DNA of 17,329 nucleotides from a virus. Its lineage: Duplodnaviria > Heunggongvirae > Uroviricota > Caudoviricetes. The first letter of the stretch is position 1. Each line of letters opens with the position of its first letter. Under the pieces are notes generated by a model. The model saw nothing but the letters and a program-made list of their open reading frames with translations, had not been told where the DNA came from and made no database searches. Both the position numbers and the translations under genes were made by a program. This document shows, piece by piece, positions 9,777 to 11,806 of this stretch. Location of the stretch: IMG/VR virus record IMGVR_UViG_2639763139_000009, one strand, 5' to 3'.

Positions 9777-9853
9777 GGCCCTTTAGCTCAGTTGGTCAGA
9801 GCGAGCGACTCATAATCGCCAGGTCGCTGGTTCAAGTCCAGCAAGGGCCACCA
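9777..9853 (+). tRNA. tRNA with anticodon CAU, ileX/ileZ-like (tRNA-Ile2 if lysidine-modified, otherwise Met)
   Basis: Manual cloverleaf: acceptor ggccctt/aagggcc, D-arm gctc/gagc, anticodon loop ctCATaa, T-loop ttcaagt, encoded CCA. Confidence 0.85.
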
Positions 9854-9854
9854 A

Positions 9855-9931
9855 CCACCACTAGCTCATCCGGATAGAGCATCAACCTTCTAAGTTGACG
9901 GTGCGAGGTTCGAGTCCTCGGTGGTGGGCCA
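9855..9931 (+). tRNA. tRNA-Arg (anticodon UCU)
   Basis: Acceptor ccaccac/gtggtgg, anticodon stem tcaac/gttga with loop ctTCTaa, T-arm cgagg-ttcgagt-cctcg, encoded CCA. Confidence 0.85.
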
Positions 9932-9933
9932 GC

Positions 9934-10009
9934 GCCGACTTAGCTCAGCAGGCAGAGCAACTGACTTGTAATCAGTAGGTCACCAGTTCGATTCCGGTAG
10001 TCGGCACCA
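9934..10009 (+). tRNA. tRNA-Thr (anticodon UGU), thrU-like
   Basis: Acceptor gccgact/agtcggc, anticodon stem actga/tcagt with loop ctTGTaa, T-loop ttcgatt (one A-C mismatch in the T-stem), encoded CCA. Confidence 0.8.
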
Positions 10010-10012
10010 TAT

Positions 10013-10087
10013 GCGGGCATCGTATAATGGCTATTACCTCAGCCTTCCAAGCTGATGATGCGGGTTCGATTCCCGCTGCCCGCTCCA
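10013..10087 (+). tRNA. tRNA-Gly (anticodon UCC), glyT-like
   Basis: Acceptor gcgggca/tgcccgc, anticodon stem tcagc/gctga with loop ctTCCaa, T-arm gcggg-ttcgatt-cccgc, CCA encoded. Resembles host glyT as recalled. Confidence 0.85.
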
Positions 10088-10201
10088 TGACCTTTCTTAA
10101 AGTACTCCAACCTACTGAATCCTAAGGGATACGGCTTTAAGCCTCCTTGCAGAGTTACTTACTGTAACCCACTGTGTAACCCTCTCAGGGCATACAGACA
10201 T

Positions 10202-11806
10202 ATGATTCAGCTATCCAGTAGTCACAAACTTCCAGCAGTCTACTATCTCTACCAGCGTAACGGCGTCTACTACTTCCGTCTTAGGGTCAGACAATCAAAC
10301 AATGATAGAATGACCTCAATATCATTACGGACCAAGGATAGACGCACCGCTATGGCTTACTCAAGGCACATAAAGGCAGCACTCAAGGCAATACACGCAG
10401 ACAGACCCAACGCTACCTATGAGGAAATGAGGGAACACCTTAAGGACATCGCTGAGTGTGAACTGTCTATGGGCCGTTCAGATCTCTTTGAGCCTGACAT
10501 GAGGGATATCTACCGGGACCAATACGGAGAACTTGGTGAGAGCCTTACCGATGCTCTGGCTAGTGAGCCGCTAAGCATTGACCAGCATCGTTACATCAAT
10601 GAGGCCCTGAAGGTGCTAAAAGCCTGTATGAGGCGTATCGAAGCGGGAGACAGTCAGCCTCTGATAGATTACGTCGATCTTTTTAATGATATTGATAGGC
10701 AAGATAACCAAGCAGACTCTGTGTCCCTATCTGTTAATGCTCCAGAAGTAAAACCAGAAGTTACGCCTAGCATTACCATAGCGAGCCTCTTTGAGCAATA
10801 CGAAGCGGAGAACTATCAGAACTGGAAGCCTGCAACCTTAAGGGAAAACAAGGCGTCACACGCTGCGTTAATCGAAATATTCGACCATCTGGGTCTCAAT
10901 GCAGACGCTAACAGGGCTGACATGCTTAGGGTCCGTGATGTGCTCCAGCAGTTACCTAGGAACCGTAAGCAGCGCTTCAAGGATGTCCCACTTGCTGACC
11001 TGTTGAGCCGTGAAGATAAGACAGATTGTCTGGATGTCGTTACCATCAACAACAAGTATCTTATTAAGATGGCTGCTGTCTTTAGGTGGGCTGTGCGCAA
11101 TGACTTGATTAAAAAGAACATGACTGAGGGTCTGGAGCTTAAAGTCCCTCAGCGTAAAGCCTCAGGGGCCCGTAACGCCTTCTCTACGGAGCAGGTGGGG
11201 CAACTACTGGTCGCAGCTAAGGCATACTCTCAGAAGACCTCTGGTAAGCCGTATCATTATTATGTTACCGCCTTGGCTGCTATCACTGGGGCGAGACTCA
11301 ATGAAATAGCCCAACTACAGGTCAAAGACGTCAGGACCACTGAGGCGGGAACCGTTTATATTCATATCAATGAAGACGATAGTAGTCTACCCGGTAAGAG
11401 CATCAAGAACGCTCATAGTGACCGCTGTGTGCCTCTGGTCGATGGGGCCTATGGTTTTATATTGGCTGACTTTATGGCGCTTGTAGAGACCCGTAGAGGC
11501 GCTGACGGTGATGACGCTATGGTGTTCGATGGTCTGCGTCTCATGAAGAACGGTTACGGTGAGCAGGTGAGTAAATGGTTTAATCGGACGTTGTTGCCTA
11601 AAGTCCTCGTAGACCGTAGCGGCTTAGCGTTTCACTCGTTTAGACATACAGTTGCGACCCAGTTAAAACAACATGGGGTCGAGTTGGCGTATGCACAGGC
11701 GATCATGGGGCATAGTTCAGGGTCTATTACTTACGACCGTTATGCTAAAGAGGTCGAGGTTGATAGGCTGGTCAATGTGATGGCTGATGTTTATAAGGAG
11801 ACCTAG
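10202..11806 (+). CDS. int: tyrosine site-specific integrase (534 aa, large form with extended central region)
   Basis: N-terminal arm-type motif VYYFRLRV. Catalytic-domain motifs TGARLNEIAQL, HSFRHTVATQL and the C-terminal ITYDRYAKE tyrosine. Starts 115 bp after the tRNA-Gly. Confidence 0.85.
   Translation: MIQLSSSHKLPAVYYLYQRNGVYYFRLRVRQSNNDRMTSISLRTKDRRTAMAYSRHIKAALKAIHADRPNATYEEMREHLKDIAECELSMGRSDLFEPDMRDIYRDQYGELGESLTDALASEPLSIDQHRYINEALKVLKACMRRIEAGDSQPLIDYVDLFNDIDRQDNQADSVSLSVNAPEVKPEVTPSITIASLFEQYEAENYQNWKPATLRENKASHAALIEIFDHLGLNADANRADMLRVRDVLQQLPRNRKQRFKDVPLADLLSREDKTDCLDVVTINNKYLIKMAAVFRWAVRNDLIKKNMTEGLELKVPQRKASGARNAFSTEQVGQLLVAAKAYSQKTSGKPYHYYVTALAAITGARLNEIAQLQVKDVRTTEAGTVYIHINEDDSSLPGKSIKNAHSDRCVPLVDGAYGFILADFMALVETRRGADGDDAMVFDGLRLMKNGYGEQVSKWFNRTLLPKVLVDRSGLAFHSFRHTVATQLKQHGVELAYAQAIMGHSSGSITYDRYAKEVEVDRLVNVMADVYKET

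Follow-up and report, generated by a model that had tools for sequence, protein, structure and literature searches.

A truncated T7-promoter-bearing island, probably inserted at a prophage-borne tRNA-Gly gene

This study concerned a 17,329-nt stretch of tailed-phage DNA (IMG/VR record IMGVR_UViG_2639763139_000009; "the window" hereafter means this whole stretch), in which a gene for a tyrosine integrase lies directly behind a phage-borne tRNA-Gly(UCC) gene. We conclude with good confidence that positions 10088-12723, about 2.6 kb, are the left part of a small island that used its own tyrosine recombinase to enter this prophage tRNA gene at the 3' end. The island is a truncated member of a family of T7-like promoter-bearing islands. 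The original prediction had proposed a second mobile element that used the phage-borne tRNA as its attachment site, and this proposal is now supported by phages with an empty site, by related islands at the chromosomal tRNA gene glyU, and by both junctions of a related island in another prophage. The finding explains why a second integrase is present in a prophage beside a Shigella-type sit locus, and it means that a tRNA gene carried by a phage can offer chromosomal islands a decoy attachment site.

The comparison with phages located the left junction. Phages vB_EcoS-689R5, 606R7, PhiR47_1, 683R6 and phi467 contain the same tRNA cluster between the Q-like antiterminator gene and the holin and lysis genes, and the tRNA-Gly of 689R5 is identical in alignment to that of the window. 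In all five phages, similarity to the window breaks off precisely with the final base of tRNA-Gly (10087), and their holin and lysis genes come next. As phages with the same tRNA cluster continue directly into lysis genes, an empty site therefore exists. E. coli chromosomes, in turn, match the window from 10044, inside the tRNA, rightwards at 86-95% identity. A three-way alignment demonstrated that the window follows the empty-site phage through 10087 and the glyU island thereafter, with the switch placed at single-base resolution.

The chromosomal islands adjoin glyU, a tRNA-Gly(CCC) gene, between actS and the ETT2 secretion genes. They measure 4.2, 6.9 and 7.3 kb, and the 3' end of the tRNA recurs at their boundaries as a direct repeat of 18-23 bp (23 bp, TTCGATTCCCTTCGCCCGCTCCA, for 14EC001 and FWSEC0003; 18 bp for 21AR0133). 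Chromosomal glyU is the normal target of the family. Since 23 of the 26 last bases of the phage-borne gene, i.e., the left attachment core (attL), are common with the 3' end of glyU (13+10), the phage tRNA would serve as a secondary attB, presumably recombined by the integrase, and integration leaves the tRNA-Gly intact. The features that mark tRNA-targeting islands, namely insertion at a tRNA 3' end, a reconstituted tRNA and a known empty site, were all found.

The integrase itself is as predicted, with a tRNA-Gly end separated from the ATG by a 114-nt gap and a gene that begins at the 115th base. Its residues 329-516 match Pfam Phage_integrase (E 4e-18), the N-terminus shows a sub-threshold match to DUF6538, and the catalytic residues R365, K399/K402, H478, R481, H504 and Y514 were invariant in all five family members compared. 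Searches in Pfam and NCBIfam revealed no P4-type arm-binding domain and no specific NCBIfam model, and the integrase is neither of the P4 type nor of the phage-inducible chromosomal island (PICI) type. The exact protein is indexed in 287 blocks of a public-assembly collection, and it was absent from all 363 matching phage records. The enzyme sits within prophage DNA and is grouped among phage integrases by PHROGs, as would be expected if it were the lambdoid prophage's own integrase, displaced to the junction of Q and the lysis genes, with no second element involved. However, where phages share the Q-tRNA module, that position is occupied by lysis genes and no integrase; the same integrase and its flanks form self-contained 4-7 kb islands with their own repeats at glyU, far from prophages; and a related island ends inside a prophage with the holin next to it, as described below. 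A cognate integrase of the prophage, which the original prediction had named as the finding that would overturn it, is thus extremely improbable.

The far repeat of the tRNA is absent from the window, where a 25-mer of the tRNA 3' end (up to three mismatches) and a 16-mer core were each present only at the tRNA. The direct repeat that the prediction had proposed to look for does bound the relatives, occurring at L001, L007, L023 and L024. One of these is L007 (IMG/VR contig 2872164251_000007), whose backbone matches window positions 3400-9466 at 99.3%, including the same insertion sequence (IS) IS1 in the nin region, and whose sister island encodes an integrase with 73% protein identity to that of the window. 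The same prophage lineage thus carries two island types. In L007, attL consists of the phage 5' half followed by CCCTTCGCCCGCTCCA of the glyU/island type, and attR, located 8.9 kb to the right, consists of the island arm followed by TCCCGCTGCCCGCTCCA of the phage type. Beyond attR, the sequence is the one found behind the tRNA in empty phages, and a P21-type holin gene and the start of a lysozyme gene come after it. Read as sequence, these reciprocal junctions are the textbook signature of a site-specific insertion that replaces the tRNA 3' end. Islands of the L007 type (99.8-99.9% identity) were also located at chromosomal glyU in S. flexneri SFBU1023 and strain ECMA0423; therefore, one element type uses both targets.

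Two observations weigh against an integrase-mediated insertion in the window. No attR is present there, and the insertion is evidenced by the left junction and by the relatives. In addition, the triplet within the window attL (10076-10078) is the phage-type GCT, whereas L007 (9870-9872) and L009 have the island/glyU-type TTC at this place, a difference that may reflect where the crossover fell or a subsequent conversion. Both observations, together with the IS-rich, Shigella-like setting and the several IS copies in the window, would be consistent with a homologous or IS-mediated rearrangement that joined a glyU-resident island to the prophage tRNA-Gly. Nevertheless, the tRNA 3' end is precisely where the break lies, a shared stretch of 13+10 bp is too short for RecA to recombine efficiently, both reciprocal junctions of L007 lie within a prophage, and at least three distinguishable island variants (window type, L009 and L007) occupy the phage tRNA. 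We consider such a rearrangement very unlikely, and insertion by the island's own integrase remains our preferred explanation.

The junction of phage tRNA and island was found in none of 5,426 complete E. coli genomes, a junction-specific 27-mer had no match in one-genome-per-species contigs, and neither the attL nor the attR pattern was found in JGI metagenomes. Within IMG/VR, attR was found only in the L007 contig.

The same tRNA cluster and island were also observed behind a different lambdoid backbone (L018-L020 and L003, with NinH and a 126-aa Q). A separate insertion into this second backbone was considered and rejected, because L019 has the same rha::IS1 junction as the window; the shared junction therefore indicates recombination between prophages. 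The presence of one island with one rha::IS1 junction behind two backbones (L018-L020 and the window) could also be taken to mean that the module travels with phage DNA by recombination, and that the island was already in the phage genome at lysogenisation instead of being inserted into a resident prophage. Against such a piggy-back origin, the island was present in none of the 363 matching phage records, an extra 4-9 kb may exceed the packaging limit, and the common IS1 junction suggests that resident prophages recombined with each other once they had decayed. We regard a piggy-back origin as unlikely, though by no means negligible, beside insertion into the resident prophage.

The features of the window are listed in Table 1. 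No second att core is present; a deletion has therefore removed the right portion of the island together with attR, as well as the phage genes for lysis, terminase, head and tail. The likely sequence of events is that an IS1 inserted into the Rha-like gene of the island, and that these losses were then caused by a deletion mediated by IS1 and the IS3-family element, which would have locked both elements in place. Neither the island nor the prophage in the window can excise. The Rha-like gene is full-length in L007 and L001, and of the cargo genes after the promoter the window retains only the 52 codons of this gene, while relatives have the full set. The cut by IS1 at about codon 52 bears out the predicted loss of cargo through an IS1-mediated rearrangement.

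Table 1. Positions of the island, its attachment target and the neighbouring prophage features in the window.
Feature	Positions	Strand	Evidence or remark
Q-like antiterminator gene	8913-9644	+	Pfam DUF1133 (E 2e-109) and Phage_antitermQ; prophage context, outside island
tRNA-Met(CAT)	9777-9853	+	ARAGORN, Rfam; phage-borne
tRNA-Arg(TCT)	9855-9931	+	ARAGORN, Rfam; phage-borne
tRNA-Thr(TGT)	9934-10009	+	ARAGORN, Rfam; phage-borne
tRNA-Gly(UCC), attachment target	10013-10087	+	ARAGORN, Rfam; intact after integration
attL core GGGTTCGATTCCC-GCT-GCCCGCTCCA	10062-10087	+	Alignment; direct repeats of the segment bound related islands
Island left arm, tRNA end to integrase gene	10088-10201	+	Near-identical to E. 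coli glyU island, unrelated to empty-site phage
Island tyrosine integrase, 534 aa, ATG start, intact	10202-11806	+	Pfam Phage_integrase
T7 class III promoter consensus TAATACGACTCACTATAGGGAGA, perfect 23/23, pointing into cargo	11894-11916	+	Exact match
AT-rich segment, 73% A+T, TTAACTTAAAG-type repeats	12105-12220	+	Resembles AT-rich part of T7-group primary origin
Tandem 10-12 bp array, CTCTATGGTC about 8 times	12252-12348	+	Units hold TGGTC or GGGTC
Rha/Ant-like regulator gene, first ~52 codons, cut by IS1	12568-12723	+	Pfam Phage_pRha over residues 23-53
IS1, end of island sequence	12724-13491	+	23-bp inverted repeats, NCBIfam transpos_IS1
5'-truncated IS3-family element	13492-14542	+	NCBIfam transpos_IS3 (E 1e-99)
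Prophage tail-fibre region, phage sequence resumes	14543-17329	+	Pfam phage_tail_N, DUF4376; Caudo_TAP

The original prediction was right in treating the island as a separate element and missed its T7-promoter nature. The perfect T7 promoter begins 88 bases after the integrase stop, none is expected by chance, and the flanking sequence agrees with that of T7 phiOR between -23 and +12. Near-identical sister islands contain one to three tandem copies of the promoter about 120 bp apart. Vector contamination was rejected as its source on the basis of the conserved chromosomal context, the many independent assemblies and the one to three tandem copies. No RNA polymerase gene was found in the open reading frame (ORF) set of any island, meaning that T7-group promoters occur without a cognate polymerase gene, as one perfect site in the window and as two to three sites in relatives. 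A scan for sigma-70 promoters and terminators showed no enrichment, the fold of a structured leader RNA after the promoter was not significant (z = -1.7), and Rfam detected only tRNAs and sok in the window.

The segments downstream of the promoter also resemble T7-group sequences. In T7, the intergenic region that separates the RNA polymerase gene from gene 1.1 contains the AT-rich primary replication origin as well as the promoters phi1.1A and phi1.1B. The AT-rich segment of the island, about 190 bp downstream of the T7 promoter, had its only BLAST matches outside the family in the same intergenic region of phages Ebrios and IME15, and its alignment scored z = 10 against Ebrios and 4.9 against T7. 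The tandem array next to it varies in copy number between strains in the manner of a variable-number tandem repeat, and in 21AR0133, where the unit is CTCTAGGGTCT, TGGTC or GGGTC is preserved as in the window. These two pentanucleotides are the recognition motifs of T7 primase. The spacer contains ten such motifs on the + strand and nine on the - strand, against 3.0 +/- 1.7 in shuffles, although the tandem repetition inflates the count on the + strand.

Relatives were collected by an integrase-alignment scan, which resulted in 19 species-level loci spanning Klebsiella, Citrobacter, Enterobacter, Buttiauxella, Pectobacterium, Proteus, Serratia and others. In most of them the integrase gene comes after a tRNA-Gly(CCC) gene. 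At 13 of the 19 loci, cores of T7-group promoters occur on the + strand, 0.6-0.9 kb beyond the integrase gene, in host-appropriate variants; Proteus, Citrobacter and Buttiauxella each have their own. The common order is the tRNA, the integrase gene, an optional RAZR gene, the promoters with the AT-rich spacer, a regulator gene of the Rha or KilA-N type and then the remaining cargo. After the regulator, this cargo comprises two small proteins, one of ~58 aa and the other a 163-aa or DUF6971 protein, and a 329-373-aa protein, followed by attR. The 329-aa protein had no match in Pfam, PHROGs, PADLOC or PDB sequences, and only fold comparison was informative, revealing in the relatives, and not in the window, a capsid-like protein of the HK97 fold. 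Of all the cargo genes, the capsid-like one is conserved best, being present at 11 of the 19 loci.

Several side observations were made on these relatives. In Klebsiella pneumoniae ATCC 13883 (L025 12263-12850), two copies of AATTAGGGCACACTATAGGGAGA, the phage K11 consensus, occur with a perfect T7 promoter and a fourth variant, and this mixture suggests responsiveness to several T7-group phages. The type-B islands contain a highly conserved non-coding stretch of about 400 nt downstream of variant promoters (L007 12330-12700 and L006 2310-2690), which could be a structured RNA. At glyU of E. coli 21AR0133 (L001 15030-32551), three att cores delimit two different islands in tandem, the second with a 650-aa integrase and unrelated cargo.

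Concerning the optional gene behind the integrase, the island of the O45:H2 strain FWSEC0003 has a 209-aa gene at this position (L024 11257-11886) that matches PD-T7-4 with E 2e-100, and a full-length counterpart was identified in 8 of the 19 loci. PD-T7-4, now named RAZR, is a HEPN RNase that protects against T3 and T7 by abortive infection, with the portal proteins of these phages as the trigger (PMC13017515). According to Vassallo et al., PD-T7-4 "often overlaps an integrase gene" (PMC9519451), and its anti-T3/T7 activity has been published (PMC13017515, PMC9519451). The gene directly follows the integrase in many family members, and this island family appears to be the native carrier of RAZR; the island in the window has no RAZR gene, and its T7 promoter comes directly after the integrase gene. 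Portal-triggered RAZR thus co-resides with a capsid-like gene presumably needing that portal. The family joins consensus T7 promoters, a T7-origin-like segment, an experimentally proven anti-T7 RNase and a capsid-fold protein.

Based on these sequence features, the polymerase of an infecting T7-group phage would probably, though with some reservation, transcribe the island. That the phage replisome then amplifies the island from the origin mimic is conceivable, at rather less than even chance. We propose only tentatively the further step, namely that the island might be a satellite of virulent T7-group phages, packaged in small shells of its own HK97-fold protein. If this were true, T7, the best studied of the virulent phages, would have a parasite in nature, RAZR would gain a native genetic context, and the copies in phage tRNA-Gly would be satellites riding inside temperate prophages.

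Several points weigh against these steps. The counts of primase motifs are inflated by tandem repeats. Beyond the promoter, no similarity to T7 packaging sequences or to the T7 right end was found. In none of the islands could a gene for a portal, terminase, primase or excisionase be recognised. The window copy is without all the cargo, so it is incapable of the proposed satellite steps, and at most transcription into the truncated rha gene and IS1 can be expected from it.

The family could instead be a T7-sensing defence island and no satellite at all, with decoy promoters, origin and primase sites that lure the phage RNA polymerase, perhaps also the replisome. The polymerase would switch on abortive-infection or interference genes, the HK97-fold protein would be an interfering capsid or an encapsulin-like shell, and spread would occur by other routes, e.g., in prophages. 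This alternative deserves serious consideration, at rather less than an even chance. However, integrase, att sites, origin-like region and capsid protein together are what a satellite typically carries; the T7 promoters come after RAZR and therefore do not drive it; and the most conserved cargo, at the 11 loci given above, is the capsid-like gene.

Islands of this kind are already known from a sequence analysis of 2006. For enteropathogens, Chen and Schneider (Nucleic Acids Res 2006;34:1133) reportedly described islands with tandem T7-like promoters. Each island, 4-13 kb in size, is reported to have a gene for a tyrosine integrase, repeats derived from a tRNA, 2-3 T7-like promoters, no polymerase gene and few (two to five) phage-related genes downstream of the promoters, and the authors are said to have suggested a dependence on T7-like phages. 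The likeness to the present islands lies in the integrase by a tRNA, the T7-group promoters, the missing polymerase gene and, in relatives of the window copy, a few phage-related genes downstream; the window copy differs in being truncated and having a single promoter. A review cites this 2006 paper for the Shigella sit island, and the locus of the window was therefore probably covered in it. No follow-up study on a T7 satellite or on T7-promoter islands was found in the searchable literature, nor was the family treated as a satellite there, and as of September 2026 only P4, PICI and cfPICI were listed as satellite families known in Enterobacteria (PMC13586616). In the literature searched, four points seem not to have been made before: a phage-borne tRNA as a proven alternative target, the origin-like segment, the link with RAZR, and the capsid fold.

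Comparison with known systems further delimits the family. The P4-like satellites and PICIs of E. coli resemble these islands in tRNA targeting (P4) or site-specific integration and in defence cargo, but no Sid, Psu, Delta, alpha primase, AlpA or Pri-Rep genes were found in the island cargo. The cf-PICIs are about 15 kb long, contain a full head module (portal, protease, connectors and small terminase) and use temperate helpers, whereas the present islands have 4-9 kb, one capsid-like gene and T7-group promoters; the HK97-fold protein of the relatives was the only head component identified, the other cargo proteins having no such matches. The PLE of Vibrio cholerae, a satellite of the virulent phage ICP1, is similar in responding to a strictly virulent helper, which it parasitises and restricts, but it is about 18 kb long, has its own replication initiator and a serine recombinase, and shows no relation in sequence or gene order to these islands. 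The use of a site within a resident prophage by an integrative element has a counterpart in the Stx2 phage inside prophage PPompW (LC567818 and others); in the present case, however, the target is a phage-borne tRNA mimicking the chromosomal attB and the guest is an island of ~5-9 kb, not a phage.

The prophage context of the island is that of a lambdoid phage. DUF1367, YbcO and Q-like genes lie upstream of the tRNAs and close a typical lambdoid replication/nin region. The four tandem tRNA genes, which the original prediction had placed directly after the Q-like gene, were recovered by both programs listed in Table 1, with Rfam scores of 56-70 bits, and 132 bp separate them from the Q-like gene. 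In complete sister genomes, sitABCD is found immediately to the right of the window region, which, together with the load of IS1, IS2 and IS3-family elements, points to the prophage of a Shigella-type "sit island".

At least five IS copies or fragments are present in the window (1-369, 815-2154, 7301-8069, 12724-13491 and 13492-14542), comprising IS3-family/IS600-like ends, an IS2 (NCBIfam IS2 TnpB), two IS1 and the truncated IS3-family element, and this density is typical of Shigella-like genomes. The truncated element at 13492-14542 is IS600-like, and an exact 102-bp tandem duplication (14347-14550) covers its end and a few flanking bases. The nin region of the prophage also contains a hok/sok-type toxin-antisense module (6486-6810), in which sok (6486-6660) scored 118 bits in Rfam and a 70-aa ORF (6598-6810) is the counterpart of the gene for a HOK_GEF family protein in sister loci.

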